Positions 33,012-52,270 are shown, counted from the stretch's first letter. The stretch: 64,000 nucleotides of DNA from a virus (IMGVR_UViG_3300032270_000796:41506-105505), one strand, 5' to 3'. A program made the numbers and translations. The notes: generated by a model from the sequence alone, not told the origin.

Positions 33012-33032
33012 TTGTATTCCTCCTATATTTAA

Positions 33033-33686: not shown

Positions 33687-33788
33687 TTGATCTTAGGTCT
33701 TAGGTCTATATATATTAATTTATATGATTTATTGATTTGCTGACCCCCCGACCCCCCTATTGGAAGTATACTATTTAGAAATTCTATG

Positions 33789-34439: not shown

Positions 34440-34474
34440 TATGTACTCTTTCTTAGTATGTAATTTCTAGTTGA

Positions 34475-35173: not shown

Positions 35174-35466
35174 TTAGATCCCCCTATTAATAATTAATAA
35201 TTAATTATATCATGAATAGATTCTGGTCAAGTAAAATATCAGATTTCATAAAATGTTAATATATTTTTATTTTGTACGATACACACCTAAAAATAAATCG
35301 GACATTTAGGATAGACCGCACATAATGAGCGTGTGCCTATGGGCAATGTGAGTCATCTCACAAAGTATTTTTTCAATTTGTCCCTAATGTCCGAATTTGG
35401 AGTTGATAAATGTCAGACCCCCATGCTACGCTTATACTATAACAAACAAACGAAAGGAGTCAGACA

Positions 35467-35643
35467 ATGACTCAACTAAATGAAACACTATTCAGCACTA
35501 TCGTGCATGACTTCCATAATGGTGGAGTAAAGTCCTCTTATGGACTATCTGCCTATGACCGCAAGGCTATGGTCAAGTACCTAATCTCTAGCCCTGCTTG
35601 CTACTGTATCGAGTGCGTGTGTGAGGTAACTCACACCGCATAA
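35467..35643 (+). CDS. Small hypothetical protein (58 aa)
   Basis: Promoter, AACGAAAGGAG leader and ATG; MTQLNETLFSTIVHDFHNGG... Confidence 0.7.
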   Translation: MTQLNETLFSTIVHDFHNGGVKSSYGLSAYDRKAMVKYLISSPACYCIECVCEVTHTA

Positions 35644-35720
35644 GGTGCGTGTCGCCTTGATAATGTCAGACCTATACCCTATAATTCCATTATAACCAAC
35701 TAACGAAAGAAGAACAGACA

Positions 35721-35873
35721 ATGACAATCACATACTCACTATGGGACGGCGCTCAACTACTAGGCGCAGGTTTCACCGCTAATAGCGCAGACGAAATGAA
35801 TAAGGTTGTAGCAGACCTACAAAAGGTTTCTAAAAATGTTGTAGCACACATGCGAAAGGTAGAACAGAACTAA
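35721..35873 (+). CDS. Small hypothetical protein (50 aa)
   Basis: Promoter and AACGAAAG leader; MTITYSLWDGAQLLG... Confidence 0.7.
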   Translation: MTITYSLWDGAQLLGAGFTANSADEMNKVVADLQKVSKNVVAHMRKVEQN

Positions 35874-36055
35874 TGTCATACGCATACTCATACAATACAA
35901 ACACGATAGATAAATACGAGTCTATCCAATCAGATGTTTCAGACGCATACGCATACCTTGATGAGGTAGATGAGGAACAACCTCCCGTTGATGACTTTGA
36001 TGATGTTGATGATGAAGAACTAGCAAAAGTATTCGCACTAAGTTGGGATAACTAA
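35873..36055 (+). CDS. Small acidic protein
   Basis: TAATG coupling to the upstream gene; D/E-rich C-terminal half. Confidence 0.7.
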   Translation: MSYAYSYNTNTIDKYESIQSDVSDAYAYLDEVDEEQPPVDDFDDVDDEELAKVFALSWDN

Positions 36056-36510
36056 TAATGACACTAGAACTAAATGACTATGGCTTAGAGTTTGATACCT
36101 ATGTATGCTACATAGCGTTATCTTGGCAGGTAATTATTCCCGCCCTAATTAGCGTAATCGCTTACAAGATTTACAAGAGAAAGAAGAATAAGTAATGACT
36201 ACTAATCGCCTACTAACTACGCTAGTCCAACTAGGTATCGGTATCCCCGCCCTACTTATGCTGCGCCTAGTAATTCGTGATCTAATTCATAATAAATTAG
36301 ACTAACGCTACGGCGTGTCGGCTTGACAAAATCAAGCTGGCCCGCAAAGGCACGGGGTCGGGCGTGTCGTTACGTTACTGTTATAAAAGCCCTGGAAATT
36401 TGTGAGATTTATCACATAAAAAGATTTATGAAAACACGGCGTGTCGATTGGATAATGTCGGTGCAATACGCTATAATTCCTACTATAACAACAACGAAAG
36501 AAGGTCAGAA

Positions 36511-36639
36511 ATGAACCTAGAAGAATACAAGGCGCATGTAGAGGCGCAACGCAAGGCAAGCCTTCTAAAGGCTATCGCAACAATGTCAGAGGCTAATGAT
36601 AAGATGTCCTCTCTATTCAATACTAAGGAGGCAGAATAA
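36511..36639 (+). CDS. Small hypothetical protein
   Basis: Start after promoter and leader (MNLEEYKAH). Confidence 0.7.
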   Translation: MNLEEYKAHVEAQRKASLLKAIATMSEANDKMSSLFNTKEAE

Positions 36640-36899
36640 TGGGTTATGTAGAAATCTTTCGCCTAGATGACGAGGGTGCTGGCTGGGTAGATTTATCCGA
36701 GGCAACACCAAAAGAATTGCTAGATTTAGAAATTGGTTTATTTCAGGAAGGTGCGCTCTAATGAAAAAATACACATTCGGCGTTTGGCTAGACATAGACG
36801 CAGAAGATGAAGAAATGGCGTTATCTTTATTTGATGAGGTTGTAAAGAAAAGTCCTTTTGTTTCAGACTCTTATTGTTTTGAATGGAAAGAGGTTGCAG

Positions 36900-37094
36900 A
36901 TGAAATCGCAATTTGAAAAAGATTTAGAAATCAAGGAAAGTTTTATTGATTTACTAAATGATGTTTATCCTACTGTAAAAATTGGATACTCTACTTTTAC
37001 ACCCGCCGAAATCTTAGAATGTTGCGACCCTGTTGCTTTTGCAATCGGATTAGTTGAACACGAAGATTACTTAGCAGAAATGGAAAACGAATGA
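36900..37094 (+). CDS. Hypothetical protein
   Basis: RBS GAGG; MKSQFEKD...LLNDVYPTVKIG..F.PAEILE.CDP. Confidence 0.7.
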   Translation: MKSQFEKDLEIKESFIDLLNDVYPTVKIGYSTFTPAEILECCDPVAFAIGLVEHEDYLAEMENE

Positions 37095-37442
37095 GCGACT
37101 TATTTGGATTTGAAAAAGCAATTCAATTAGATCATCTTAGCGATGAGCAAATAAATCAGCTAGAGGAAATCCTAAAAGATTTTCAATAACTAACGGCGTG
37201 TCGACTTGACAAAGTTGATCCGCCCCCATAAGCACGGGGTCGGGCGTGTCGTTATGAAAGAGTTATAAAAACCCTGGAATTTTACGGCGTGTCGACTTGA
37301 CAGACAAAACGGACATATTTATGTGATTAGTATCACATGGCTTGAGCGTCTCAATATTTGGAATTACTGGCTAGTAATGTGAAAATGTCAGTAGGCTCGT
37401 GTATAATTCCATACATAACAACAAACGAAAGAAGGTCTGCCA

Positions 37443-37649
37443 ATGGCTACCAAACTCTACACAATCGAAAGCCTACTCGTAGGACAAAACTACCGCTCAC
37501 GCAATCGCCACTTTTCTGGCGAAATTGTATCCGCTAAGCCTCGCCCCGAAATTTGGTATGGCGATAAAACCGAAGCCTTTTTAATTGAGGTTCGCACAGG
37601 TGGTCTGCGAAATAAATTCGCAACTGTTGCCGTAAAGGTAGGTGAATAA
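37443..37649 (+). CDS. Hypothetical protein
   Basis: Promoter and leader. Confidence 0.7.
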   Translation: MATKLYTIESLLVGQNYRSRNRHFSGEIVSAKPRPEIWYGDKTEAFLIEVRTGGLRNKFATVAVKVGE

Positions 37650-37978
37650 ATGAAAAGTTTTTCATCTGATGTAATTGACCAAAATGAATTTTATCTTATA
37701 CACGACACAACTTTTATGTGTTGCGATGAAAGTCAATTTCGCTATTCTTGTAAGGCTCACGGCGAAATGATGGGTTGCTACTTTTGCGAATTTGATTACT
37801 CAAAAGAATGTGAGTGTGAGGAATAATGATAAACTCAGTAATGCGTATAGATTGCTCAGAGTGTAATTCAACTGGACTAATCTTTTTTGGCGATAACAAT
37901 AATTTTGATGTCGAAACTTGCGATTGCGATTTCGGCAAAGAGCAAGACTCATTTTTTAACTAACGAAAGGGAAAACCT

Positions 37979-38185
37979 ATGTATAAAATAACTATTGCTT
38001 ATGATGAAAATGCTCCGCATTGGAGTAAGCCGTTTAATGATGAATTCGAAGCGTGGAAAGATTTTTTTTCTTTCACCGATTGGGGTTTTGCTAATGAATA
38101 CTCAACTGTAAATTTATTTACACCCAGCGGAAAATGCTACACAAAAATTTTCTATCGTGAAGGACGAAAGGTCGTAACAAAATGA
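37979..38185 (+). CDS. Hypothetical protein
   Basis: AACGAAAGG leader. Confidence 0.7.
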   Translation: MYKITIAYDENAPHWSKPFNDEFEAWKDFFSFTDWGFANEYSTVNLFTPSGKCYTKIFYREGRKVVTK

Positions 38186-38373
38186 TGACTCGTAAAGATT
38201 ATGTCGCAACGGCAGAAATTCTAAAGTATCTAAGCAACAAAACTCACCCTGCTGTTTTTTCTAAAACTGTTCACGATTTTGCTGAGATGTTTGCAAAAGA
38301 TAATGAAAGATTTGATGTAAAGCGATTTCATGAAGCGAGTGGGTATCATGTTCCTAACTTCACTTCAAGATAA
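38182..38373 (+). CDS. Hypothetical protein
   Basis: ATGA overlap; MTRKDY...F..DN.RFD..RF. Confidence 0.7.
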   Translation: MMTRKDYVATAEILKYLSNKTHPAVFSKTVHDFAEMFAKDNERFDVKRFHEASGYHVPNFTSR

Positions 38374-38628
38374 AGTAAAGCGAATTCAGGAATTGCGTCG
38401 CAGTAATGCGGCGCAACCTGTTCGCAATAAAAAGAAATACACACGCAAGATCAAACACAAAAATAAATATTCAGAGTAGCGCATAAATATGCAGCTGCCC
38501 TCTCTTTTGTGGGGGGTCTAGTGTGAATTACGTCACATTTTAAAAATACCCTGAAAATTCGGCGTGTCGATTTTGATCTGTCAGTCCATTCTGCTATACT
38601 TGCCACTTAACCAACGAAAGGCTAACTA

Positions 38629-38838
38629 ATGGATAATTTTACTGTTGCTTGCTTGAACTATGAAATTTGTGGTGCTCAAGAAACTTTTGATAACGATGCA
38701 GAATATGAAATTTATGGCGATGACTATATTTGTGCTGAATGCTATGCATCTGAGGAAATGGAATTCTTTGAAACTATAGGCTGGTCTGATAGCGACGCTC
38801 TTGCGTCTGCTGGCCACGGAATGGATGAGGACTACTAA
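38629..38838 (+). CDS. Small acidic Cys-containing protein
   Basis: Promoter and leader; DALASAGHGMDEDY tail. Confidence 0.7.
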   Translation: MDNFTVACLNYEICGAQETFDNDAEYEIYGDDYICAECYASEEMEFFETIGWSDSDALASAGHGMDEDY

Positions 38839-38959
38839 TGGATACCTGTATCGCTTGTAATCAAGAAACTACTCAATTTGTAACCGATGACGGGGAATTC
38901 TATTACCCTGTGTGTGGAGAGTGCTACTAATGTCAGTCCCGCCCGCTATAATTACCCCT

Positions 38960-39679
38960 ATGAAACTGAAACGTTCTAATGATAGAAAGGTGGCTAACCT
39001 TGTCACAAAAAATGGAAAGCAAGCCGCAATTGCAAACACGTTCGGGCTCCCTGCTGGAAAAGCTTACTCATGCCCTGGTGCCACTAGTATTTGTGAGAGC
39101 GTATGCTATGCAGGAAAACTTGAAAAACTATTCCCAGGAGTAAAAACTAATCTGCTTCACAATTGGGCCCTACTTAAGGACGCCGATAGCGAAACTATGG
39201 TCCGCCTATTAGAAGAGATGATTGTTGATTTTGTTGCTGATTGTAATAAGAAGAATGCGCCTAAGTTATTCCGTATCCACTGGGACGGGGATTTCTTTAG
39301 CGATACTTATACATATGCGTGGAAGACTGTTATTGAAAACCATTCCGATATTCAATTTTGGGTTTATACACGTGTAAAGTCTGCAGCGCTTATTATCAAG
39401 GATGTTGCTAATCTTTCACTGTACTATTCTACGGATGATGAAAATAAAGAAATAGCATTCGATTTAAAAAAGAATTCTAAGGTCCGCCTGGCCTACCTTG
39501 GAAAGACATTTGCTTCAACCGAAGACACAATGAAAGAGTTAACGGGCAAGCCTGGCGCTAAGTGTCCTGAGAATATGAAAAGCATTCCGCTAATCTCTAG
39601 CAATGGGTCCGCATGTGTATCTTGTGGTCTCTGTGTTTATGGTAAAGCCGATATTAGATTTTCTGCGAGTAAAAAATAA
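38960..39679 (+). CDS. Gp88-like Cys-rich protein (probably leaderless)
   Basis: FGLPAG...SCPGAT..C..VCYA...FRIHWDGDF...FWVYTR; ATG 7 nt after TATAAT. Confidence 0.7.
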   Translation: MKLKRSNDRKVANLVTKNGKQAAIANTFGLPAGKAYSCPGATSICESVCYAGKLEKLFPGVKTNLLHNWALLKDADSETMVRLLEEMIVDFVADCNKKNAPKLFRIHWDGDFFSDTYTYAWKTVIENHSDIQFWVYTRVKSAALIIKDVANLSLYYSTDDENKEIAFDLKKNSKVRLAYLGKTFASTEDTMKELTGKPGAKCPENMKSIPLISSNGSACVSCGLCVYGKADIRFSASKK

Positions 39680-40021
39680 TGATTGATATTATTGGATCTG
39701 TTATTGCAATTATATTAATTGCATTCTTGTGCTCACCAATTGTGCTAGCCGTGTACATGTGGAATGGTGCAAAAATAGATAGCGATAATGACGGTAAAGA
39801 AGATCTGCCTAATCGTTGGAGCAAATAACGGAGTGTCGAGTTGACAATTGTCAGCTCGGCCCCCAATATTGTGGGGGGTTATCCACAGGCTTACGGGAGT
39901 TATCCACAGACCCTGAAAATTTGTGATTAATCTCACAAAAGCTGCGACACGCCGAGAATGGATTAGGTAATGTCAGTGGCCTATGCTAAAATACTCTTAT
40001 ACCAACAACGAAAGGTAATCT

Positions 40022-40246
40022 ATGTCTAATCTAATGAAAGTTCCACACACTATCGAGTTCGAGGCAATTATTGACTTGGATAAAATTCCCGCTAACTTAC
40101 TACCTGCACTAATTGCACTTGATACTTATTCAGTTACAAAGATGTGCAAAGAAGCAACACTACACGCACTTGGTATGTCTAATGTATTACCACTTGCTAA
40201 TGAAAATAACACTTGGGCTGAAGTAACAATTAAGGAGAATAACTAA
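40022..40246 (+). CDS. Hypothetical protein
   Basis: Promoter and leader. Confidence 0.7.
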   Translation: MSNLMKVPHTIEFEAIIDLDKIPANLLPALIALDTYSVTKMCKEATLHALGMSNVLPLANENNTWAEVTIKENN

Positions 40247-40512
40247 TGGGATACACAACAGCAGTAAGTCTATCTGAGGAATTAGATTTAGAAGTAGCAC
40301 TAGGCTATCACTTACAAGGTAATCATTACCCGCCCGTTCCCCTCTCAATGGTCGAGCCTTGCATCGAGGCTATTGACGCTTATTGGGAAGAAGATTTTGA
40401 TCGAGCAATCGAAATGCCTGAAGGCGTATCTTATAAAGGTCAGACTCACGCACCCGCTTGGGCTATTGTCGAGCAGCACCACTTGGACGCTTGGCTACCT
40501 GAAAGTGACTAA
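40246..40512 (+). CDS. Hypothetical protein
   Basis: HL..NHYPPVP...IVEQHHLDAWL. Confidence 0.75.
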   Translation: MGYTTAVSLSEELDLEVALGYHLQGNHYPPVPLSMVEPCIEAIDAYWEEDFDRAIEMPEGVSYKGQTHAPAWAIVEQHHLDAWLPESD

Positions 40513-40607
40513 GGTAACACAATAACTTTCTCAAATACTGAGATAGGGCTAGACAAATGTCAGACCCCAATGTTATACTATCCACCTAACAAAGAAAAGA
40601 GGCAAAA

Positions 40608-40790
40608 ATGACAATAGATAATCATCTCTATCAGGTTGGCGATTTATTCACCACCCTAAAGTCAAAAAAGACGGGCGTTATCAAAGAGATACACCCACAA
40701 GCATCTGGCTCGGTGCGTGTCCTACTAGAAATGCCAACGAAGGAAACTCGCTGGACTTCAGTATCGGCAAAGACCCTTCTAGGCGCATAA
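40608..40790 (+). CDS. Small hypothetical protein
   Basis: Promoter and RBS. Confidence 0.65.
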   Translation: MTIDNHLYQVGDLFTTLKSKKTGVIKEIHPQASGSVRVLLEMPTKETRWTSVSAKTLLGA

Positions 40791-40925
40791 CCTAGAACGA
40801 AACAGGGACAGTTTAGAGAGTATCTAGTCCAATGTCGTAAGTAAGAACTCTCCACCTTCGGGTGGAAATGTCAGACCCCCCTGCTATACTATCCATAACA
40901 ACAACCAACCAACGAAAGGTATCAA

Positions 40926-41342
40926 ATGTCAAGAGCAATAACAGTAAAGGTGGCAACACCTAAAGTAATCAAGGCACTAGAAACTCGTCTAGCAACACTA
41001 GAAAAAGACTATGCTAGTCAAACAGCAAATGAAGCAAAGTATCAGAAGGCAGTAGAAGCGTGGCGTAAGGAAATTGGAAAGTGGGCTATTGCTAACTTCT
41101 CAAAGGCTGAGAACCTTCGCACAAACTATCGCAACTGGAACAACACTCTCAATGTTGATTTTGACATCATCACAAAGGAAGGCAACTTCCCTGCTGAACC
41201 TGAAAAGGATTTTGAGACAATTCATCAGCACTCTTATCGTGAGATGAAAGAGGACATCACAAATGCTCTCACAATTCTCAAGATGACAGATGAGGAAACA
41301 GTAAATGCTTCTACTATGAAGCAAATTGCTAAGTATCTCTAA
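40926..41342 (+). CDS. Hypothetical protein
   Basis: Promoter and leader. Confidence 0.75.
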   Translation: MSRAITVKVATPKVIKALETRLATLEKDYASQTANEAKYQKAVEAWRKEIGKWAIANFSKAENLRTNYRNWNNTLNVDFDIITKEGNFPAEPEKDFETIHQHSYREMKEDITNALTILKMTDEETVNASTMKQIAKYL

Positions 41343-41464
41343 ATAATTTGGGGGGCAGAACTAAAGTCCTGAACCCAATCGTTCTCGCATAACGATAAAT
41401 TGCGAACGACCTGAGTAAGTCGCCAAACTGCTCTCCTTCGGGAAACTACTAACAAAGGCATTAA

Positions 41465-41863
41465 ATGAAAAAACTAACGGCAACCATACTTGGAATTATC
41501 CTTGTTGGAACACTTGCAACTGCTTGCGGTTCGGAAGATACAGAAATCTTAAACAATGCAGGAGAACCTTATGTTGAAAAAACAATTACTGATTCATATG
41601 ATTGGAGAATAAAATCTTCTTGCAAACATTTTAGACGAGCCTTGGCCAATGCAGATATTACAACATATCAAGAACAACTTAAAGAACTTAAAGACGCCTA
41701 CACTGGAGCAGCATGGGCATACGAAGATGGAGTATGGCAAAGTGGCCCTATATACCACGCAATGAGGATAACACTTGCTGCAGCGGTAGATAACAATTTT
41801 AATGATGAGGCAGTTGCAGCAATGGCTGAAGTTGCAGTTCTGTGCTCCAGCGTTCCAAACTAA
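41465..41863 (+). CDS. Predicted lipoprotein
   Basis: MKK + hydrophobic stretch + LATA-C lipobox. Confidence 0.65.
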   Translation: MKKLTATILGIILVGTLATACGSEDTEILNNAGEPYVEKTITDSYDWRIKSSCKHFRRALANADITTYQEQLKELKDAYTGAAWAYEDGVWQSGPIYHAMRITLAAAVDNNFNDEAVAAMAEVAVLCSSVPN

Positions 41864-41891
41864 TAAACCCCCAACTAACAAAGGAAACAAA

Positions 41892-42152
41892 ATGGCTAAT
41901 CGTTTCAGAGTAGAAATCTACGATGCAAACAAACTTAATGACATCACGATTTATTCGGATCAAGGTGTTGATAAAGAATACTTAACTGAATTAGTATTCA
42001 GCAACATCAGAAACTTTAGCGGAAAGATTAACGCTTATGTTTTTGATAATGTAAAAAAGAAAAAGACAACTGCTATGTTTCTTGATGAAAGTACAGTTGA
42101 GTTTAATAAGAACTTAATTAAAAATGCGACAAAGGTAGAGGTGGGGATTTAA
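41892..42152 (+). CDS. Hypothetical protein
   Basis: RBS AAAGGA; MANRFRVEIYD. Confidence 0.7.
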   Translation: MANRFRVEIYDANKLNDITIYSDQGVDKEYLTELVFSNIRNFSGKINAYVFDNVKKKKTTAMFLDESTVEFNKNLIKNATKVEVGI

Positions 42153-42330
42153 TCCCCAGCTCGGCCCCCGCTTTTGAGGGGTTATCCACAGCGTTACGAC
42201 AACCTGTGGAAAACCCTGAAAATTTGTGAGAATGATCACACCGCACAATTCGGACAAATGACTGTCTAATCTAGACAATGTCAGTGCCACCTGTTATACT
42301 TACAACTAATCAAACGAAAGGTAAAAAATA

Positions 42331-43335
42331 ATGGCTCATAATCTAGAAATGGAAAACGGCGAAGTTGCTTTCGCTCTCCGTGGCGCACCTGCTTGGCACA
42401 ATCTAGCAAATCGCATCTTCACACAAGATGAAGAAGTAACTACACAATCTATGCTTGAAGAAGCAAAGTTGGCTAATTGGAATGTTCGTTTATCTCCAAT
42501 CACCGAGCACATTCCAGAATCTTGGAATGATGTTTCTACTGCATCTCTTGTCATTCGTGACAACCCATTCAATGGCGGAACTGATGTTCTTGCAACTGTT
42601 GGAAAGCGTTACAAGCCTGTGCAGAATGAAGAACTATTCGCATTCGCTGATGCAATTCACGATGCCAATGCTGATTGCCGTTGGGAATCTGCTGGCTCAC
42701 TCAAAAAGGGTAAAGTTGTTTTCGGCACTGTGGACATTCCTCGCACAATGGTGCTTGACCCACAAGGCGCTAACGATGAGACTAAACTCTATCTAATTGT
42801 ATGGACATCTCATGACGGGTCTGTTGCTGTTCAAGCAGCGGTTACACCTGTTCGTGTTGTATGCCAAAACACACTGAATCTTGCAATGCGTAATGCTAAG
42901 CAATCATTCAAGATTCGTCACACGCAATCTGTTGAAGGTCGCATTCAAGTTGCCCGTGAGACTCTTGGTCTTGCTCTTGGATACTTTGATGAATTTGAGA
43001 TTGAGGCTCAGGCATTGTTTAATCAAGCAATCACCGATGCTGAATTCTCTAAGTTGATTCAGACAATTTATCCTAAGCCTGAAAAAGATGCTAAGGGTGC
43101 AATCAAGAAGTGGGAAAACAAAGTTGTCCTGCTTGACGATTTGTATCACAACTCACCAACCAATGCTAACATCAAGGGAACTAAGTGGGGTGCATTTAAT
43201 GCACTTACTGAGCGCCTTGATTACTATCGTTCAGGTCGTGGCAATGGTGAAACTCTTATGGCAGGTGCATCAGGATTTGACCCTGTTCTAACTGCTGAGA
43301 AAAACAAAATCAAGAAATTGGTTTCTGCTTTCTAA
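42331..43335 (+). CDS. DUF932/DUF945-family phage-plasmid protein
   Basis: PAWH, RY.PVQN.E.F, ESAGSL..G, SHDGS, TPVRVVCQNTL, GT.WGAFNA.TE. Confidence 0.85.
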   Translation: MAHNLEMENGEVAFALRGAPAWHNLANRIFTQDEEVTTQSMLEEAKLANWNVRLSPITEHIPESWNDVSTASLVIRDNPFNGGTDVLATVGKRYKPVQNEELFAFADAIHDANADCRWESAGSLKKGKVVFGTVDIPRTMVLDPQGANDETKLYLIVWTSHDGSVAVQAAVTPVRVVCQNTLNLAMRNAKQSFKIRHTQSVEGRIQVARETLGLALGYFDEFEIEAQALFNQAITDAEFSKLIQTIYPKPEKDAKGAIKKWENKVVLLDDLYHNSPTNANIKGTKWGAFNALTERLDYYRSGRGNGETLMAGASGFDPVLTAEKNKIKKLVSAF

Positions 43336-43382
43336 TTAAAAAAATCCTGAGCATGATTTAAAACTGCTCACATTTTTTATTT

Positions 43383-43456
43383 GGTCTGTTAGCTCAGTTG
43401 GTTAGAGCGCTACCCTGTCACGGTAGAGGTCGACGGTTCAAGTCCGTTACAGATCG
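43383..43456 (+). tRNA. tRNA-Asp, anticodon GUC
   Basis: GGTCTGT-TA-GCTC...GAGC-G-CTACC-CT(GTC)AC-GGTAG...GGTTCAAGTCC...ACAGATC-G. Confidence 0.92.
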
Positions 43457-43583
43457 CAAATCGCCCGCAATGTTAAGGGAACCAAAACTGTGTTACGACT
43501 CACATAAAAAATCCCCTGAAATCTATTGCATATGTCAGTGGGGTCGTGTACAATACTCCATATACAACAACGAAAGGTATAAA

Positions 43584-44009
43584 ATGTCATCACGAACTAA
43601 AGGTTACATTGGAACACTAGTGGACGGCAAAAAGCTTGCCACAATTGCAAATGGTATATATAACTTACAATACAGTTCAGACTTCTCTGAGTGCACAGTA
43701 GATAATCTATTGTTTATTGAATTAGAAGAGAAGAACGTATTTGGGGATCCTAAATATGCCCTGGTTTGTTCAGAGGGTGTTGGCTGGGAACAAGATACAT
43801 ATGGTTGCCTAGAAGTACCAACAAACATCGGTGCTATGGGTCTATGGAATGGCCGTGTCTTTATCTCAGTAGATACTGTTAAGTCTTGCCTTACTGATAA
43901 GACTGAGGATATATCAGATTACATTAGAGTCTTTGGCTCCCGCCTTGACTCCAACTGCTCCCTATGGCAGTCCAAGATGTCAGTGGTCTCTGATAGAATA
44001 CTCGTATGA
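43584..44009 (+). CDS. Hypothetical protein
   Basis: Start corrected to the ATG after promoter and leader (MSSRTKG). Confidence 0.7.
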   Translation: MSSRTKGYIGTLVDGKKLATIANGIYNLQYSSDFSECTVDNLLFIELEEKNVFGDPKYALVCSEGVGWEQDTYGCLEVPTNIGAMGLWNGRVFISVDTVKSCLTDKTEDISDYIRVFGSRLDSNCSLWQSKMSVVSDRILV

Positions 44010-44662
44010 CCAACGAACTAGTATCAAGTAAATATACATTTGTCTGCGACCCAGATGAATGTGATTGTCTAATTGAATTAACATCATCTGACGGGTTTGG
44101 ATTCCCATCAGGTGTGACAGAACTCACATGTCCATGTGGCCGTAAGACAACCTTATTGTCAGTGGAGCATGCTACAATTGCACCAACAACAACGAAAGAG
44201 GAACAAATGGAAACAACAACACCTGCAGTAACTGTCCCTGATACATACAACTCTAATCTATTGGTAACCTATAAGGTTATCCGTGGCTACTCAGATGCAG
44301 AATATGCAACTGATAAGGTTGCATCTATCGAGTGGGATTTACACAATGGACGTCAATCACAGAAGCAAGTAAGTCTTTACTTATCTAAGATTGATGCCGT
44401 CAAAGATATCATTACTGAATCATATGCTGATTCAAGCGACCAAGAAACACTTCAAGCAATTGCTGAGGCGCTAGATATTTCTTTAACACGTGAAGTCGAG
44501 TGGTCTGCAACAATTGAAGTTAGCGGAACATTAACAATTGATTTACTTGAAAGCACAGTTGATGATGTCGAGCAAGAAATCTACGACAATCTTTATGTTG
44601 ATTCACAAAATGGTCAGATTGAAATTGTCGATACTGAAATCTGTAATGTGAGAGAAAACTAA
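44006..44662 (+). CDS. Hypothetical protein; second in-frame start at 44207 has its own promoter and leader
   Basis: Leaderless ATG after TAGAAT; internal promoter at 44157 and AACGAAAGAGG RBS. Confidence 0.7.
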   Translation: MTNELVSSKYTFVCDPDECDCLIELTSSDGFGFPSGVTELTCPCGRKTTLLSVEHATIAPTTTKEEQMETTTPAVTVPDTYNSNLLVTYKVIRGYSDAEYATDKVASIEWDLHNGRQSQKQVSLYLSKIDAVKDIITESYADSSDQETLQAIAEALDISLTREVEWSATIEVSGTLTIDLLESTVDDVEQEIYDNLYVDSQNGQIEIVDTEICNVREN

Positions 44663-44874
44663 TGTACTTTGAACTTACTGCTCCCGATAGGTTGTCCATG
44701 GAGATGGCCTATTGGGATGCACAAATCACAGGGCTTGACCCTGAAGCAATGTCACCGTTGACTTTCAACATCGGAACTGGTAGTATTGAGAAAGTAAGTC
44801 GTATTCGTGATAAGTATAACTTGACAGAGTCCTACTGGTCAGATAGAGAAGCGACAGGATATAAGGAGAAGTAA
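44662..44874 (+). CDS. Hypothetical protein
   Basis: TAATG coupling. Confidence 0.7.
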   Translation: MYFELTAPDRLSMEMAYWDAQITGLDPEAMSPLTFNIGTGSIEKVSRIRDKYNLTESYWSDREATGYKEK

Positions 44875-45016
44875 TGTCAGATTACAAAGATGGTTTTACA
44901 GACGGGTATAAATTTGCTCGTGAGGAACTAATGGAAAAGTTAGCAGAGATTGATATTGCTGACATTGACTCTTGGATTCTTGACCGTCTTTCAGAGATGA
45001 TTGAAGGTAATCAACT

Positions 45017-45208
45017 ATGATGGCTGAATGGCTTAAGTGTGATCAGTGTGCAGCTCAGGCAATGTGGGAAGCAAAGAAAGACGCCATGTCTCTTTATTTC
45101 TGCGGACATCATAAGAACGCACAGGGCGAGTCTCTTGTGGACTGGGCCCATGAAATGGTACAATTACTCAACTACGAAAAAGAACACCAACTAGAAACGG
45201 CGGAATAA
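45017..45208 (+). CDS. Small Zn-binding hypothetical protein
   Basis: CDQC...FCGHH. Confidence 0.7.
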   Translation: MMAEWLKCDQCAAQAMWEAKKDAMSLYFCGHHKNAQGESLVDWAHEMVQLLNYEKEHQLETAE

Positions 45209-45209
45209 A

Positions 45210-45578
45210 ATGGGCGACAGAGCAAACTTTGGATTTAAAGATTCCAAGGACAATATTGTATTTCTATATGGACACTGGGCAGGGCACCGAATGCTAGAGA
45301 ACCTAGCGGATGCTGTAGGCGCTGCAGAGCCACGTTGGCAGGACGAATCATATGCAACACGTATTGCTATCTCACAATTAATTAAAGACGAATGGGCTAG
45401 CGAAACAGGGTGGGGCATTACAGTAAATGAATTAGCAGACAATGAGCACAAGGTCCCTATTATCGATTGGAAGAACCAAACGTTTACATTAATGGAAGAG
45501 GACCTGAAGACGGTTGTATTTAGTACAACACTGGATGCATTTGTAACCAAGTATTCCAGTCAACCAAGTATGGTATAA
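45210..45578 (+). CDS. Hypothetical protein
   Basis: MGDRAN...LYGHWAG...RW.D.SYATRI. Confidence 0.75.
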   Translation: MGDRANFGFKDSKDNIVFLYGHWAGHRMLENLADAVGAAEPRWQDESYATRIAISQLIKDEWASETGWGITVNELADNEHKVPIIDWKNQTFTLMEEDLKTVVFSTTLDAFVTKYSSQPSMV

Positions 45579-45583
45579 TTAAT

Positions 45584-45736
45584 CCAGGACCTATGGTCTT
45601 GGTTTTAATATAGAAATGAAATGGTGCGTCTAACTAGTCTACGGGCCAGGCGCTAAGTAAAGCGGTTTATTTCTTTCGTTGGAAATCTAGCAGCCATATT
45701 CATAACCCCCCAGCTAATCCTGGGGGGTATTCTTTT
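45584..45736 (+). ncRNA. Candidate ~150-nt structured small RNA
   Basis: Extended -10 TGGTATAAT at 45571, 5' hairpin, three-way junction, terminator cccccca...tgggggg followed by a T-run. Confidence 0.55.
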
Positions 45737-45912
45737 GCCCACAAAAGATATGAGGGTATCAGATCTCTTTTAAGAAGTCAATATAAAATACCCTGAAAAT
45801 TTGTGATCTTGACCACATTCTGAATAAAATGTGGTGTGACTCACACCCAAATACTATTCCAAATGTCAGTGGTCCATTGTATAATTGGAACATATCAACG
45901 AAAGGATATAAA

Positions 45913-46656
45913 ATGCCAAATTGGGTAATGAATGGTTTAACTATAGAAGGCTCACCTGAGCAAGTTAAATCTTTAATGGAACAAATGAACAAACCATTCA
46001 AAATGGTCCATGACTCATGGAACACGGAAACTGGACAAATGGAAAAGAAGTTAGTTACTTATCCTAATCCTGTGTTTGCTTTTCATAATATCTATTCTTA
46101 TCTAGATGCAGGTATTACTGAGGAAGACTATCTTTCTCAACCGCCCCATAATCCTGATATGACTGAATGGTTTAAGTTTGAGGGTAATGATTGGTACAAC
46201 TTCAATGTCCGTGAGTGGGGCACCAAATGGGATGTTGCTATCTCAGATAATGATAAGTACTCAGATACATCTATGGAAGATGCTGCTAACGGTGAGAACC
46301 ATGTGGTCCACTACAACTTTAATACTGCTTGGTCCCGACCTATGCCTGCCCTCCAAAAATTATCTGCACAATACCCAACATTACTCTTTACTTTATCATA
46401 TGAGGAAGAGACAGGTTGGGGTGGGGAACTAGAAATTCTTCGTGGAGAAGTTATCTCAGAATCAGAATATGACAACATGTGCCGTGATTGTGATGCAACA
46501 GACCAAATGGAATACTGCGAAAATGACTGTGGTGAAATCTGTGGCAACTGCAACTGGCTTGGTGAGGCTGACCTAGATGCTGTCGCAAAATGTCAGACCC
46601 ATGCTATATACTTAGAAACTAAAGTACCCGAATATCGAAAGGCGGAGGTAAAATGA
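45913..46656 (+). CDS. DUF1281/YubB ferredoxin-like domain protein
   Basis: MPNW..N.L.I.G...DWYNFN..EWGTKWD...F.TAWS.P...YEEE.G. Confidence 0.75.
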   Translation: MPNWVMNGLTIEGSPEQVKSLMEQMNKPFKMVHDSWNTETGQMEKKLVTYPNPVFAFHNIYSYLDAGITEEDYLSQPPHNPDMTEWFKFEGNDWYNFNVREWGTKWDVAISDNDKYSDTSMEDAANGENHVVHYNFNTAWSRPMPALQKLSAQYPTLLFTLSYEEETGWGGELEILRGEVISESEYDNMCRDCDATDQMEYCENDCGEICGNCNWLGEADLDAVAKCQTHAIYLETKVPEYRKAEVK

Positions 46657-46883
46657 GTTTTCTAGAGAACGAAAACCAAATGGTAATAGACGCAACATAT
46701 TCAGAGATTGGCGAAATGCTAGTTGAAGATTGGGTCAATTCCAATTTAGATGAAGGGCAGATGTATGCAGATTTTAGATTTGCAGAAATGTCAGATAACA
46801 ATTACCTAAAAGGTAGATTTAATCAGTTCTATGATTTAAATGAAGGCGACCAGTATTACCTAGAATGGAATGAGGAACTATGA
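46653..46883 (+). CDS. Hypothetical protein
   Basis: RBS GGAGG, ATGA overlap. Confidence 0.65.
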   Translation: MSFLENENQMVIDATYSEIGEMLVEDWVNSNLDEGQMYADFRFAEMSDNNYLKGRFNQFYDLNEGDQYYLEWNEEL

Positions 46884-47167
46884 TGTTAGGTTATTCTAAA
46901 GAAGATCTAGATGAAATGATTAACTCGGTCCATGATGCTAAATTGTTTTACATTAGAAATTCAGATGTTGAGCAAGTAGACAAAGACCCTTTAGTTGAAG
47001 GTTTATTAAAAGCAAATGATTTCCTACAGGGATTATGGGCAGAAGGGTATTTTGACTAATGCATAAACATCATTGGGAATGCACAGATACACCAGGTATC
47101 TTTATGTGCCACGCAGAAGGAACTATTGGATACTTTAATAGTTTAATTAAACAGATTGTTGAAGACA

Positions 47168-47389
47168 ATGACTAAATCATCAATGTTCCTAGAGTATATG
47201 AAACTTCATTTAATTAGTCTTAACCAGGATTGGGAAGATACTAAAAATGGAGAACCTTTGAAGGATGATGAATATGACCCTTCAGATGATTACTTCCAAG
47301 GAGCAATTGAAGCAACCGAACATTTATTGTCAGTGGCAACTGATATAATGGAATCTACTAACGAAAGGTATAACAATGACAATATCTGA
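47168..47389 (+). CDS. Hypothetical protein
   Basis: ORF; carries the 47328 promoter in its 3' end. Confidence 0.6.
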   Translation: MTKSSMFLEYMKLHLISLNQDWEDTKNGEPLKDDEYDPSDDYFQGAIEATEHLLSVATDIMESTNERYNNDNI

Positions 47390-47669
47390 TGATATGTTTA
47401 CTGATAAGGAATCTCTTGTACTCCCGCCCCACCTTCAACGTATGGTGGACGCAGGGGTAACGGGACTAGACATCATGCACGGGGAACTAAAAAACCTAAT
47501 GCTAATTGCAGAGCAGGAACTTGCTGACGCAATTGCACGGGAGGAAGAAACCGAAGAAGCAATGGATTCTATGGACCGCACAAATGCAGAAGGGCGCCTA
47601 GATATGCTTGTCGAACTTTACCAACTAACTTATCAATTATCATTTGCGATTGGAGCACGTACACTATGA
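47376..47669 (+). CDS. Hypothetical protein
   Basis: Promoter and leader. Confidence 0.7.
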   Translation: MTISDDMFTDKESLVLPPHLQRMVDAGVTGLDIMHGELKNLMLIAEQELADAIAREEETEEAMDSMDRTNAEGRLDMLVELYQLTYQLSFAIGARTL

Positions 47670-47992
47670 AGCCTGAAGATAAAGACAAATTAAATGAATG
47701 TTTAAAGATTCTCGACAGCACCGACCTTGGCCTGTCGCTAGTGTGGCTGTGGACATGGTCCACAATTAACAACATCTTTGAGGATGAGACCTACAAGCAG
47801 AACTGCACCATAGACGACATGTGGGACCACCTCTGTGAGGCCGTGGAGGCTGGTATGGGCTTCTCCCTAGAGTACGGGGCGGAACAGCACAATGATGACG
47901 TCCTTGAATGGATGATGAATCGTGAATACATTGTGGACACAATGTTTGAAGAGGATGACGAAGAGGAAGAAGACGAAGATGAAGATGAGTGA
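47666..47992 (+). CDS. Hypothetical protein with poly-acidic tail
   Basis: Ends EEDDEEEEDEDEDE. Confidence 0.7.
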   Translation: MKPEDKDKLNECLKILDSTDLGLSLVWLWTWSTINNIFEDETYKQNCTIDDMWDHLCEAVEAGMGFSLEYGAEQHNDDVLEWMMNREYIVDTMFEEDDEEEEDEDEDE

Positions 47993-48125
47993 CAACTATC
48001 TCAATGATCAGTTAAACAAAGCCCAAAAGCTTTTGTGGGGTGGATCTGAGACTGAGAATATCGAGGCGCATAACATCATTGCTGAATTAATTAAAGATCG
48101 TATTGAACAAGCAGATCTTTCGTAA
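47985..48125 (+). CDS. Small hypothetical protein
   Basis: MSDNYLNDQL...; overlaps the upstream stop. Confidence 0.55.
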   Translation: MSDNYLNDQLNKAQKLLWGGSETENIEAHNIIAELIKDRIEQADLS

Positions 48126-48232
48126 GGGCCAAATTCGGCGGTTACGACACAATTAAATAAACTCCTGAAACTATTTACAAAATTGCAAATAGTTGATATA
48201 CTAAATAAAACATCTCTTGAAAGGGGATTCAA

Positions 48233-48382
48233 ATGACAACAAAGCGTGAATATCTAAAGCAGCAAGGCATCACAGTAGGTGTACGTGGGCGCTTCTCAGG
48301 AGCAGCCAAGGTAGCTCTAGCGGAAGCTGTAGCCAAGGGCGTTACATTTACTGCAGAGACCCCAGCCAACAAGGCTAAGTAA
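48233..48382 (+). CDS. Lsr2-like DNA-binding-domain-only protein (49 aa)
   Basis: RBS GAAAGGGG; MTTKREYLKQQGITVGVRGRFS.. resembles the Lsr2 C-domain (R.W...G..V..RGR). Confidence 0.6.
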   Translation: MTTKREYLKQQGITVGVRGRFSGAAKVALAEAVAKGVTFTAETPANKAK

Positions 48383-48389
48383 TCCAGGG

Positions 48390-48434
48390 TGGAGGTCGGG
48401 GCTTCGTTGGTCCTTGACCTCCTCTCTTATTTTT
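48390..48434 (+). terminator. Intrinsic terminator
   Basis: ggaggtcggggc...gtccttgacctcc followed by a T-rich tail. Confidence 0.55.
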
Positions 48435-48467
48435 GGTACAATTGACAGTTAGGCGGAAGGCGGACAT

Positions 48468-48839
48468 ATGAGTAAGACACCTGAAATCAAAGTAGCAGAA
48501 TCATTAGTTAATCTAATGGATGACCATTGGTTTAATCCAACAATGTTTGGTCGATATTTGGCGGAACAGCCATTGTATACAATTGACCGAGTTATGGAAA
48601 TGGTTGTATCAGTTATATCAGAGCAAGCAAAGATATATGATGTATATCTAAATAGGGGTACATCTTCTGAAGGTCTACTATTAGCCAATGAACTGAATGA
48701 ATGTATCAAGGCTTATCAACAAGATAACAATTTAAACAATCTTAAGTTGCCGTCCCGTTCTTACAAAGTAAAACGGGAGGAACCACTAGCAAGACCAAAC
48801 ATATTTGGATGGAAAGAAGAAACAGATCCATTCAGTTAA
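48468..48839 (+). CDS. Hypothetical protein
   Basis: Last plus-strand ORF of the module. Confidence 0.7.
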   Translation: MSKTPEIKVAESLVNLMDDHWFNPTMFGRYLAEQPLYTIDRVMEMVVSVISEQAKIYDVYLNRGTSSEGLLLANELNECIKAYQQDNNLNNLKLPSRSYKVKREEPLARPNIFGWKEETDPFS

Positions 48840-48899
48840 GTATAGGCATATACCAATGAATAGAAGAATGCCTGGTTAGATAGATAAACATATCTAGCC

Positions 48900-49400
48900 C
48901 AAATTATCCACAGGGTTATCCACATCCTGTGGATTTTTTGTATGCTGTGGGCATGAGGGCAACATTTTGCTTTTACGACACATGATCCAAATCCCTGAAA
49001 TTTCTAGCTCATGGGCCAAATTTTCTATTTACGAAGCCTTGACAAAAATCCCTGAAAATGCTACACAATAATGTCTATATGATTAATTATACATATAGAA
49101 TGTCGACAAATGTGTAGAGAATATGGCAAAATAGATCAAAATTCCTCATGAAATCTATTGACAAATATGGATCAATATGCTGCTATATATGTCCGAATTG
49201 TCCTATTGACATTACGTTTATGATGGGGTATGCTCAATTACATATGTATGTTTATATAGATATAACTATAGTATTTGATATGCTATCTATAGTATAAATT
49301 CTCCACTATGCTCCACTTTACTCCACTATATAAGCCTTAGAAGGGCTATTAGAGACTGGAGAAAAGGGAGGGGGATATAGGAGTTAGCTCCTAATTGGAT
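48900..49400. other. Non-coding repeat-rich region (origin- or terminus-like)
   Basis: DnaA boxes TTATCCACA at 48904 and 48916, AT-rich tract ~49230-49300, CTCCACT x3 with 10-bp period at 49301-49327. Confidence 0.5.
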
Positions 49401-51907: not shown

Positions 51908-51916
51908 TTATATCTC

Positions 51917-52153: not shown

Positions 52154-52270
52154 TCCTCTAAAAGGTGTTCATTTTCTTTAAATGCTTTTAGAATAGCTTC
52201 TCTTATTTTATCATTCTTTAATGCATTGTGCGTACCATTGCATTCTGGATACGCATCTGATAAGCCACAT

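Follow-up and report, generated by a model that had tools for sequence, protein, structure and literature searches.

Seventeen promoters in a single gene block of an uncultured freshwater phage share their upstream box, spacing and -10 element with the PafBC promoters of actinobacteria, and the phage probably borrows this DNA-damage switch of its host. A first-pass annotation had proposed a PafBC-driven module, and the geometry of the sites, the extended word around the box, the assignment to the actinophages and the failure to find a PafBC in the phage agree with that proposal; we infer the reader of the sites (PafBC) and the identity of its trigger. The annotation knew of no described phage regulon of this kind, and we found no published description of one in the literature searched.

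Phage genome and the plus-strand gene block

The phage (record IMGVR_UViG_3300032270_000796) looks virulent and has a genome of 105.5 kb (105,505-base record) with 38.6% GC. The window is the 64,000-nucleotide stretch of this record that was analyzed, and coordinates refer to it unless record positions are indicated. The promoters lie in a plus-strand block, and the genome has no other long block on that strand.

35411..48934 (~13 kb), plus strand: gene layout of about 41 small genes, holding all 17 promoters
48906..48934, plus strand: strong terminator-like hairpin of 11 pairs, followed by a T run, closing the block
62647..63024, minus strand: WhiB-family gene, a marker of actinobacterial hosts; searches of the phage gave no other clear family of transcription factors

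A Pfam and PHROGs scan of the 41 block proteins gave matches to GP88, DUF932, DUF1281_C, DUF7455 and an Lsr2-like family (phrog_6269), while the remaining proteins, most of the 41, could not be tied to any family of named function, and the same goes for many proteins elsewhere in the genome. The block resembles a takeover-like module of small, takeover-type genes, and we infer its early timing from gene content alone. Outside the block, the genome has weak matches to HTH_23 (E 3.7e-4) and MerR_1 (E 1.8e-3).

Judged by its sequence, the phage is an actinophage, because it codes for WhiB and Lsr2-like proteins and its capsid protease is like those of Streptomyces phages (139 phage records matched, 127 of Streptomyces and 9 of Rhodococcus), and also because of its GAAAGG ribosome-binding sites and leaderless genes. 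The actinobacterial affiliation implied at first pass is therefore borne out by the WhiB, Lsr2-like and capsid protease matches.

An array of 17 promoters

Both strands of the window were searched for TGTCRG-N10-TANNNT, and the counts were compared with those of 100 shuffles. The window contains 18 matches versus 1.13 expected (sd 1.02, largest shuffle 4), a number reached in 0/100 shuffles. Seventeen are plus-strand copies within 35411-47349, at exactly the coordinates annotated previously, 16 with TGTCAG and one with TGTCGG (at 36456), and the 10-nt spacer is exact in all of them.

35411..35432, plus strand: PafBC-type promoter 1 (TGTCAGACCCCC..TACGCT), ATG 35467
35664..35685, plus strand: PafBC-type promoter 2, ATG 35721
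36456..36477, plus strand: PafBC-type promoter 3, the single TGTCGG box, ATG 36511
36584..36605, plus strand: PafBC-type promoter 4, ATG 36639
37386..37407, plus strand: PafBC-type promoter 5, ATG 37443
38579..38600, plus strand: PafBC-type promoter 6, ATG 38629
38931..38952, plus strand: PafBC-type promoter 7, TATAAT then 7 nt, leaderless ATG 38960 (GP88-family gene 38960-39679)
39971..39992, plus strand: PafBC-type promoter 8 (TGTCAGTGGCC..TGCTAAAAT), ATG 40022
40558..40579, plus strand: PafBC-type promoter 9, ATG 40608
40869..40890, plus strand: PafBC-type promoter 10, ATG 40926
42279..42300, plus strand: PafBC-type promoter 11, ATG 42331 (DUF932 gene)
43533..43554, plus strand: PafBC-type promoter 12, ATG 43584
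43978..43999, plus strand: PafBC-type promoter 13, TAGAAT then 6 nt, leaderless ATG 44006 (frame 44006-44662)
44157..44178, plus strand: PafBC-type promoter 14, within frame 44006-44662, ATG 44207 in the same frame
45864..45885, plus strand: PafBC-type promoter 15, ATG 45913 (DUF1281_C-domain protein)
46591..46612, plus strand: PafBC-type promoter 16, ATG 46653
47328..47349, plus strand: PafBC-type promoter 17, ATG 47376

The earlier claim that no copy exists elsewhere stands save for two strays, namely the 18th match, a minus-strand TGTCGG at 28232 outside the block, and one extra TGTCAG site in the whole 105,505-base record, at record position 11810, within the coordinates of the DNA polymerase III alpha ORF on the minus strand (10278-13565). 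Over the record, the TGTCAG pattern occurs 17 times forward and 0 times in reverse, with 2 and 0 matches for the reversed-pattern controls. The spacing is equally restricted, as TGTCRG occurs 21 times on the plus strand and once on the minus strand of 35300-49000, and in 17 of the 21 a TANNNT follows at exactly N10; spacers of 6-9, 11, 13 and 14 gave no sites there and spacer 12 gave three. Sites with one mismatch were at chance level (37, the 17 perfect ones included, versus 21.7 expected).

Leaders are present at 15 sites, where the ATG lies 26-40 nt downstream and is preceded by a GAAAGG-type ribosome-binding site, and the two leaderless ATGs reported previously lie 7 nt (38931) and 6 nt (43978) after the -10. 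For the GP88 gene, the Pfam GP88 model begins exactly at ATG 38960, its position 1 being residue 17 of a longer GTG frame. Both leaderless ATGs fit a predicted transcription start 6-7 nt after the -10. The description of the other promoters as TTGACA/TATAAT types holds for a few strong matches (e.g., 28968, identical at 12 of 12 positions), although matches of this type are about as frequent as in shuffles (66 versus 63.2; 75 versus 70.4).

CRP-type palindromes upstream of the promoters

The block also contains TGTGA-N6-TCACA palindromes, eight versus 0.08 expected, all in the block and upstream of 8 of the 17 promoters.

35347..35362: TGTGA-N6-TCACA, 64 nt before box 1
35620..35635: TGTGA-N6-TCACA, 44 nt before box 2
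36401..36416: TGTGA-N6-TCACA, 55 nt before box 3
37322..37337: TGTGA-N6-TCACA, 64 nt before box 5
38522..38537: TGTGA-N6-TCACA, 57 nt before box 6
39922..39937: TGTGA-N6-TCACA, 49 nt before box 8
42225..42240: TGTGA-N6-TCACA, 54 nt before box 11, neighbouring block kept in relatives
44113..44128: TGTGA-N6-TCACA, 44 nt before box 14

These CRP-type palindromes are a putative second conserved input, absent from the earlier reading, and the eight of them indicate that other factors act at these promoters.

Conservation in related phages

A motif scan of the full record and its relatives, as the first-pass annotation had proposed, found the sites kept in 80 related IMG/VR contigs, with 1156 forward versus 6 reverse sites. 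The window and these relatives provide 828 distinct site contexts, in which consensus is found in the box, in the W-S-S that follows it and in a TGn before the -10 (T 67%, G 79%), the -10 itself being near consensus (TGnTAtAAT); a -35 consensus was looked for in the same contexts and none was found. No conservation extends into the flanks of these 828 sites, so what is repeated is only the box, the -10 and the ribosome-binding site. In the 42 distinct sequences from upstream of the DUF932 gene, neither the box nor the extended -10 changes, in contrast to the -35 zone and the spacer, which both vary. Contigs assembled from RNA libraries have joints with an end near a promoter copy (43558 to 44006 and 38617 to 38960, for example). 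Eight cultured actinophages have only 0-2 sites each (D29 and Bxb1 have 0), and by this contrast the array appears specific.

Match to cellular PafBC promoters

PafBC-dependent (RecA-NDp) promoters, which work by "sigma adaptation," are described for Mycobacterium, Streptomyces and other actinobacteria in excerpts of PMC8635444, PMC11804915 and PMC6789036. The in vivo motif given in the first of these excerpts is tGTCgg(N10)tA(N3)T; its 5' part, in which GTC is conserved, lies at -23..-28, and there is no -35. All 17 phage sites have TGTC(A/G)G, all 17 have the 10-nt spacing to a tAnnnT -10, and the 828 distinct sites lack a -35, so that the consensus match claimed at first pass holds for the invariant GTC, N10 and the -10, and the absent -35 is likewise as published. 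The extended box TGTCAG-W-S-S...TGnTAnnnT without a -35 is, as far as sequence can tell, that of a cellular PafBC/RecA-NDp promoter. The layout of the two leaderless phage genes is shared by the RecA-NDp promoter of S. coelicolor SCO6735, which reads TGTCAGTGG.., TACGGT, 6 nt and ATG in the primer text of PMC5087735.

The extended word is itself abundant in cells. TGTCAGWSS-N7-TANNNT occurs 66, 61, 49, 47, 46 and 34 times in six actinobacterial genomes of 7.9-9.9 Mb, versus 0-1 for reversed-pattern controls in the same six, and its prevailing form there is TGTCAGTGG. Two 1.8 Mb genomes have 11 versus 0, with ACC and TGG types mixed, as in the phage, whose second box type is TGTCAGACCCC. In the order holding genome G001, a [TC]GTC-N12-TAnnnT box, mostly TGTCACACCCC, precedes recA in 31/32 cases, a LexA-type box adjoins it in 26/32, and the recA box is present in 7/7 genomes of G001's low-GC family. 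Three closed genomes of 1.4-1.5 Mb, from the class with Streptomyces-sized genomes, carry HTH_PafC; their recA genes are preceded by TTGTCAGTGGCTCCTGCTACCTT or TTGTCGGTG.. boxes, and they hold 7, 8 and 5 boxes genome-wide versus 2, 2 and 1 in controls. The recA promoter of G948 is a cellular PafBC-type promoter that also has TGn before its -10.

Cellular and phage sites thus share the box, N10, tAnnnT, the missing -35, the TGTCAG-TGG/ACC forms and some leaderless genes. They differ in that the phage sites are on a virulent-looking phage, before small genes without a named function rather than host repair genes, and in density, since 17 in 12 kb is more than a whole 1.4-1.5 Mb cellular genome contains (5-8). 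The phage -10 is also stronger (TGnTAtAAT) than that of cellular PafBC promoters, and half of the phage sites have an upstream CRP-type palindrome.

Availability of a reader

The search for WYL genes in the rest of the genome that had been suggested at first pass was run, and a WYL profile gave 0 matches at E<=1 in the phage. PafB and PafC of G001, compared with 1612 phage frames, found no likeness (best E 0.62), and no sigma-factor family is among the 25 of 34 Pfam families listed for the phage. HTH_PafC was found in 88/96 genomes of the class with Streptomyces-sized genomes and in 316/401 of G001's class, leaving 8/96 and 85/401 sampled genomes where PafC was missed. Of the 20 misses listed for G001's class, 17 fall on genomes of 0.9-1.1 Mb, so a very streamlined host could lack PafC; HTH_PafC also occurs in low-GC genomes of 1.4-1.6 Mb.

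Host searches led only to look-alike cellular genomes. G001 carries two WYL genes in tandem, of which the second has HTH_PafC, and a phage-type AhpC (66% identity), but its box is TGTCGT, not TGTCAG, whereas the three small genomes have the most phage-like boxes and lack this AhpC (25-29%). The best box and the best AhpC are thus in different genomes, and the two clues to the host lead to different lineages. The host likely has PafBC, to judge from the two classes sampled.

Comparison with other phage systems

T4 middle promoters combine a MotA box at -30 with a sigma-70 -10, and MotA and AsiA are phage-made adaptors that remodel sigma (sigma appropriation). The phage sites are like them in having a normal -10, no -35 and a box near -30/-26 for an adaptor of sigma domain 4, but T4 makes its own adaptor, whereas the searches found none in this phage, whose box is that of the host and presumably differs from the MotA box. 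No MotA or AsiA family is among the Pfam and PHROGs matches listed for 104 phage proteins (25 of 34 families in the whole-genome list). T4 middle promoters are named as a related phage case in excerpts of PMC8635444.

The dense one-way block, with small genes, short operons, own promoters and strong ribosome-binding sites, resembles the takeover modules of SPO1 and T5. Those modules place many strong early promoters with ordinary -35/-10 elements before many small genes, under the main sigma factor of the host, unlike the signal-gated host activator implied here. Other phages are tied to the LexA/RecA SOS response by repressor cleavage or by LexA boxes on phage genes, and, if our reading is true, this phage would likewise read the DNA-damage state of its host; they, however, use it for prophage induction, whereas here a LexA-independent activator of a lytic gene block is implied. 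The actinobacterial LexA box, which we take to be of the TCGAAC-N4-GTTCGA type, occurs in that form before recA in the cellular genomes sampled and has 0 matches in the 64-kb window at up to 1 mismatch.

Stoperators are asymmetric sites of a phage repressor, spread over the genome in no fixed register to a -10. The phage sites do not fit this description, since they all fall in one block and keep N10 to the -10; D29 and Bxb1 have 0 sites of the phage pattern, and no repressor or integrase family is among those listed.

Proposed mechanism and alternatives

We consider it somewhat better than an even bet that host PafBC drives the takeover-like module by sigma adaptation. The 17 sites would be read by the housekeeping RNA polymerase of the host (SigA) together with PafBC, the helix-turn-helix of PafB reading GTC in the -28 to -23 box and PafC contacting sigma domain 4, so that no -35 would be needed. 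The TAnnnT -10, mostly with an extended TGn in the phage, would be read as usual. PafBC is always present and active only with single-stranded DNA in its WYL domains, and for this reason the block of ~41 genes would fire upon the appearance of such DNA in the infected cell, whether from phage ends, replication or recombination intermediates, or prior host damage. With a near-consensus extended -10, SigA alone may suffice, and the box would then be a modulator, not a requirement.

The box at -26 could instead be read by a phage-encoded protein, either a -35-contact activator like MotA/AsiA or a PafB mimic unlike PafB in sequence, and the block would be a middle class under an earlier phage gene. 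Such a reader is conceivable because a large number of phage proteins, including most of the 41 in the block, have no assigned function; in addition, WhiB-family proteins, one of which the phage encodes, bind sigma domain 4, the HTH_23 and MerR_1 matches offer weak candidates, and the few canonical TTGACA/TATAAT promoters could serve a still earlier class. A phage factor would not, however, have to imitate the host word, and the box, W-S-S, N10 and missing -35 are all cellular; as no WYL, PafB or PafC likeness was found and no sigma-factor family is among the 25 of 34 listed, we regard a phage reader as unlikely. Less probable again is that these are plain extended -10 promoters used by SigA alone, TGTCAG being the operator of a phage or host repressor or a decoy that soaks up PafBC. 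The near-consensus -10 suits this idea, a box in the spacer could block RNA polymerase, cluster A mycobacteriophages do have one-way repeated operator words (stoperators), and 17 boxes versus 5-8 per small genome would suit titration. Against it, cellular PafBC promoters also carry TGn (e.g., recA of G948), stoperators keep no constant distance to a -10, the families listed (25 of 34 in the whole-genome list) include no repressor or integrase, and the fixed register together with the identity with an activator site points to activation. A spreading promoter cassette without a special regulator, whose PafBC likeness is a coincidence of short words, seems very improbable: the RNA-library contig joints hint at recombination at repeats, but the flanks of the 828 sites are not conserved, the counts are 18 versus 1.13 expected and 1156 versus 6 on the other strand, and the 9-letter word with its spacing is enriched in cellular genomes (34-66 versus 0-1).

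If control by host PafBC, the reading that we prefer, is true, the phage would use the LexA-independent DNA-damage activator of its host for a lytic gene block.

Promoter sites and their strand and spacing

The pattern TGTCRG-N10-TANNNT, the PafBC-type or RecA-NDp site whose TGTC hexamer part is called here the box, has 18 matches in the 64-kb window, against 1.13 in dinucleotide-preserving shuffles (largest value, 4). The first-pass annotation had placed 17 plus-strand sites at 35411-47349, and we recovered the same coordinates, 16 with TGTCAG and one with TGTCGG. Its statement that no copy lies elsewhere nearly holds, the exceptions being a stray minus-strand site at 28232 and, in the rest of the 105,505-base record, a single TGTCAG site within the range of a minus-strand polymerase ORF. 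The block contains 22 copies of TGTCRG, all but one on the plus strand, and 17 of the 21 plus-strand copies have TANNNT at N10, which agrees with the exact 10-nt spacer claimed earlier; other spacers in the block gave no match (6 to 9, 11, 13, and 14) or three (12). One-mismatch boxes, considered as extra sites, were at chance level (37 including the 17 perfect ones, against 21.7 expected). From the shuffle, strand, spacer, and one-mismatch counts, the promoter signal is real, strand specific, register specific, and all or none, and the observation of a 17-site array is confirmed. LexA boxes, the alternative form of control, were absent from the window, where matches to ordinary sigma-70-type promoters were not enriched.

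Gene content of the block and of the phage

The genome has a single long block of plus-strand genes, about 41 small ones at 35.4 to 48.9 kb, and it is this block that the sites serve. Scanning the 41 block proteins against Pfam named GP88, DUF932, DUF1281_C, and DUF7455, while 19 PHROGs families were matched, the sole named one being an Lsr2-like DNA-bridging protein. Among 50,697 phage records, megablast detected no match to the block. The block resembles the host takeover or early blocks of large virulent phages, so that its genes may be early ones. The virus record is assigned to the IMG/VR class "linear," with a CheckV completeness of 97 and a GC content of 38.6%, and codes for a WhiB-family protein, RecA, DNA polymerase III alpha, a primase, a DnaB-type helicase, a PD-(D/E)XK nuclease, ribonucleotide reductase, a portal protein, tail fibers, an AhpC/AhpD-like pair, and many 2OG-Fe(II) oxygenase paralogues. 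Its capsid maturation protease matched 139 phage records, all at <60% identity, from phages of Streptomyces (127), Rhodococcus (9), Serratia (2), and Alicyclobacillus (1).

Features of the block and its surroundings (coordinates, strand, description)
48906-48934, plus: strong terminator-like hairpin that closes the block
43383-43457, plus: tRNA-Asp gene in the block, between the DUF932 gene and promoter 12
45579-45863, plus: intergenic gap of 285 nt inside the block, with no gene
31157, 51927, 63192, and 63279: four further tRNA genes of the window, outside the block
54184-55232, minus: AhpC-type peroxiredoxin gene, then an AhpD-like (CMD) gene
6964-12548, 31452-35173, 51254-56904, and record positions 6444-7415, minus: paralogous genes of about 200 to 270 aa, those tested matching 2OG-Fe(II) oxygenase families

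One array of five of these paralogues directly adjoins the block on the opposite strand. The order AhpC then AhpD is presumably that of the mycobacterial ahpC-ahpD operon. The intergenic gap contains a stable RNA fold (162 nt tested, -52 kcal/mol, z = -2.9), ends this RNA with a strong hairpin and T run at 45705-45728, and has at 45672 the sequence TCTTTCGTTG, the complement of the leader common to block genes. In the predicted fold, TCTTTCGTTG does not clearly occupy a loop. The hairpin at the end of the block has TTATCCACA within its loop and stem, which we take to be the DnaA-box consensus.

Anatomy of a site and leaderless starts

At 15 sites, an ATG lies 26 to 40 nt downstream, preceded by a common leader that ends in a ACGAAAGG-type ribosome-binding sequence. 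The remaining two sites had been described as leaderless, and they do have an ATG after 7 nt (38960) and 6 nt (44006). As the Pfam GP88 model begins exactly at ATG 38960, this GP88-family gene is best read as leaderless, and its transcript would start about 7 nt after TATAAT. The frame at 44006-44662 (plus strand) has two promoters, one located 6 nt before ATG 44006 and an internal one before the in-frame ATG 44207, so two protein forms of 218 and 151 aa may be made. Pooling the window with 80 related contigs gave 828 distinct site contexts with the consensus aaaTGTCAG(T/A)(G/C)(C/G)c...tGnTAtAAT, in which the positions set by the search pattern are invariant by construction. The TGn ahead of the -10 element is conserved in these pooled contexts (T 67%, G 79%), and the zone of a -35 hexamer shows no conservation. 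In a check independent of the search pattern, the region upstream of the DUF932 gene was aligned for the window and 60 of 80 related loci (the gene start expression missed the other 20). Across the 42 distinct sequences obtained, three elements are invariant, namely, the box, the extended -10 element, and the ribosome-binding site, and variation is found in the spacer, the -35 zone, and the remaining leader.

Similarity to cellular PafBC promoters

PafBC is the main DNA damage activator of mycobacteria and other actinobacteria. In published work, its in vivo motif is tGTCgg(N10)tA(N3)T, with the 5' part at -23 to -28, a strictly conserved GTC, and no -35 element, and the activator is placed between sigma domain 4 and the DNA (PMC8635444); PafBC is activated by single-stranded DNA at its WYL domains (PMC11804915). 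Every sequence feature of this published motif is present in the phage sites, and the match between phage and cells extends beyond the minimal motif to a 9-letter word with its spacing, TGTCAGWSS-N7-TANNNT. This word occurs 66, 61, 49, 47, 46, and 34 times, against 0 or 1 in controls, in six genomes of 7.9 to 9.9 Mb drawn from a 381-genome phylum sample, in which the phylum-wide counts rest partly on genomes flagged as unpublished (G704, G539, G511, G805, G812, and G577). Its commonest form there is TGTCAGTGG. Two 1.8-Mb genomes gave 11 against 0 in the control, and they mix the TGG, ACC, and AGS forms, as the phage does. The promoter of SCO6735 in Streptomyces coelicolor, of the RecA-NDp type according to its authors, reads TGTCAGTGG..TACGGT, 6 nt, and ATG in the primer text of that article (PMC5087735), which is the layout of phage site 43978.

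Similar boxes precede recA in two actinobacterial lineages. G001, a 1.6-Mb metagenome-assembled genome (MAG) reached through the AhpC scan, with loci at 36 to 40% GC, contains a tandem pair of WYL genes with HTH_PafC on the second one, and upstream of its recA, a LexA-type box is followed by TTGTCGTACCCCC..TATATT. A relaxed pattern found 12 sites in G001 against 4 in controls, 8 of the 12 being TGTCGTASS, and these sites precede recA, an HD-domain hydrolase, a DUF559-type nuclease, and a Fic/RhuM protein, among others. Such a box lies upstream of recA in 7 of 7 genomes of the G001 family and in 31 of 32 recA upstream regions of its order (without two loci, L269 and L273, that lack upstream sequence), where it is mostly TGTCACACCCC; the second box type of the phage is TGTCAGACCCC.

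In the second lineage, the class that holds genomes of 8 to 9 Mb and that, judging from genome size, is presumably Actinomycetes, HTH_PafC was found in 88 of 96 sampled genomes and not in the other 8, a tally that includes unpublished-flagged genomes (G904, G869, G877, G886, G897, G893, and G891). Three closed genomes of this class, of 1.4 to 1.5 Mb, have HTH_PafC, and upstream of their recA lies a LexA-type box with TTGTCAGTGGCTCCTGCTACCTT, or TTGTCGGTG... Genome-wide, they have 7, 8, and 5 boxes (controls, 2, 2, and 1), so one phage genome has two to three times as many as such a small cell.

Which factor reads the box

Given these similarities, the phage promoters would be read by host RNA polymerase together with host PafBC, and we consider this reading of the sequence fairly probable. 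A protein made by the phage itself is an unlikely reader. A six-frame search of the phage for WYL domains gave no match at an E value of ≤1, and PafB and PafC of G001 had no homologue among 1,612 phage frames (best E value, 0.62), so that neither search yielded a phage-encoded PafBC homologue; among 63 further phage proteins, Pfam matched WhiB and only weak HTH families, a result that covers 25 of 34 families and leaves some room for a small phage sigma factor or HTH protein.

It is even less probable that the box is an operator or decoy at ordinary extended -10 promoters, although a strong extended -10 element could function with SigA alone. Work of 2025 by Rafique et al. (cited in PMC12848934) reportedly links PafBC to mycobacteriophage resistance and may bear on the dependence of phages on PafBC.

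Candidate second inputs at the promoters

The window contains eight exact copies of the palindrome TGTGA-N6-TCACA, where 0.08 would be expected; every copy is inside the block, and they lie 44 to 64 nt upstream of eight boxes. We take this palindrome to be the consensus of CRP/GlxR-type regulators.

TGTGA-N6-TCACA palindromes (16 nt each, start position)
35347
35620
36401
37322
38522
39922
42225, in a stretch kept in relatives
44113

The hexamer GTGTCG, presumably the reverse complement of a WhiA-type GACAC core, has 9 plus-strand copies at 35649-39833, the first third of the block, and 12 in the whole window; three of them (35649, 36441, and 38564) lie exactly 15 nt before a box.

Conservation and spread

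Relatives of the DUF932 protein are encoded on 327 IMG/VR stretches, the best 80 being 92 to 99% identical, and the phage group is abundant in IMG/VR. Over the 80 related loci (1,311,141 bases), the pattern has 1,156 matches oriented like the block and 6 on the opposite strand, compared with 12 and 9 for reversed-pattern controls. Scanning IMG/VR with one longer box form matched at least 120 stretches. Among the 80 loci listed, 37 hold at least three sites, all at 36 to 42% GC, while contigs with a GC content of ≥50% have one or two sites. In 11 of the 37 multisite loci, only 4 to 21% of the length is shared with this genome by blastn, yet they have 3 to 12 one-way sites. The promoter type outlives the genes downstream of it, a pattern in favor of a regulatory role. 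The trait is not general among actinophages, as the eight cultured ones analyzed (Jay2Jay, Moab, D29, TM4, Bxb1, phiC31, Bxz1, and Giles) have 0 to 2 sites each.

Contigs at least 88% like the block were present in RNA library assemblies from four runs, one on wastewater and three on fresh water, the latter from three studies, which indicates a freshwater phage group. The runs were selected through the block itself, so low depth in the flanks is uninformative, and the four assemblies compared with the block consist of assembled contigs. Contig joints lie near promoter copies at 36220-44150 (for example, 43558 to 44006, 38617 to 38960, and 37409 to 44150). They suggest that gene cassettes come and go among relatives through recombination at these promoter repeats, although metagenome joints at 88% likeness may be artifacts.

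Host range clues

WhiB and Lsr2 proteins are characteristic of actinobacteria and of the phages that infect them. With a WhiB protein, an Lsr2-like gene, and leaderless genes, an actinobacterial host is very likely. Within the phylum, the TGTCAG form of the box points to the class with large genomes and its 1.4- to 1.5-Mb members, while the phage AhpC points instead to the G001 lineage, with 66% identity to the G001 protein and 25 to 29% in the three small genomes. These three, which have phage-like PafBC boxes, lack the phage type of AhpC, and the phage may supply peroxide defense to a host without it. The closest cellular AhpC proteins, on long contigs, are 70 to 76% identical to that of the phage; the genome scan gave, among the matches listed, mostly proteobacteria at 59 to 66% and two actinobacterial MAGs.

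Some candidates were discarded. Two short contigs of 32 to 37% GC (L095 and L096), with an AhpC 69% identical to that of the phage, belong to a MAG of 70% GC (G002) whose other loci have 70 to 72%, and they are probably misbinned phage contigs. The WhiB protein, searched as a host marker, had matches of only 33 to 39% identity, and the phylum sample (which includes the unpublished-flagged G789) held no rhodopsin-bearing small low-GC genomes, as 30 of 30 loci had 56 to 76% GC.

Ten other small genomes, chosen by size alone, seem to belong to other lineages. Upstream of recA, one has a TGTC box, one has a CGTC box, and five have neither. PafC was not found in 85 of 401 sampled genomes of the G001 class, and 17 of the 20 misses listed are genomes of 0.9 to 1.1 Mb; the PafC percentages rest partly on unpublished-flagged genomes (G079, G060, G094, and G395 for this class, with G120, G060, and G143 as further ones in the tallies).

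Implications for actinophage biology

The promoter class and its mechanism are already known, and its carrier and use are new. The first-pass annotation knew of no described phage regulon of this type, and we likewise found no description in those parts of the literature on PafBC, RecA-NDp, and phage promoters that were consulted. To our knowledge, the only targets described so far for PafBC are repair genes of the cell itself, and a phage family with an entire gene block under PafBC-type promoters would be the first known case of a virus plugged into this LexA-independent alarm. The natural counterpart is the appropriation of sigma by T4, while the phage described here would use a host adaptor. 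Such a family would offer a simple model in which a virulent actinophage takes the appearance of single-stranded DNA as the signal for timing its genes. The 17 natural promoter variants would be material for studying sigma adaptation, and the promoter type would hint at which hosts these very abundant uncultured phages of fresh water infect.

A broader reading, which we regard as speculative and rather doubtful, is that this abundant family of lake phages uses PafBC as the master switch of takeover, joined at half of the promoters by a CRP-type input, and drains PafBC from host repair and defense genes while replicating, as each phage copy would have two to three times more high-quality boxes than the host chromosome. 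The phage would then be both client and sponge of the host DNA damage regulator, and titration of PafBC by the boxes would bear on how phages blunt host damage and defense responses.
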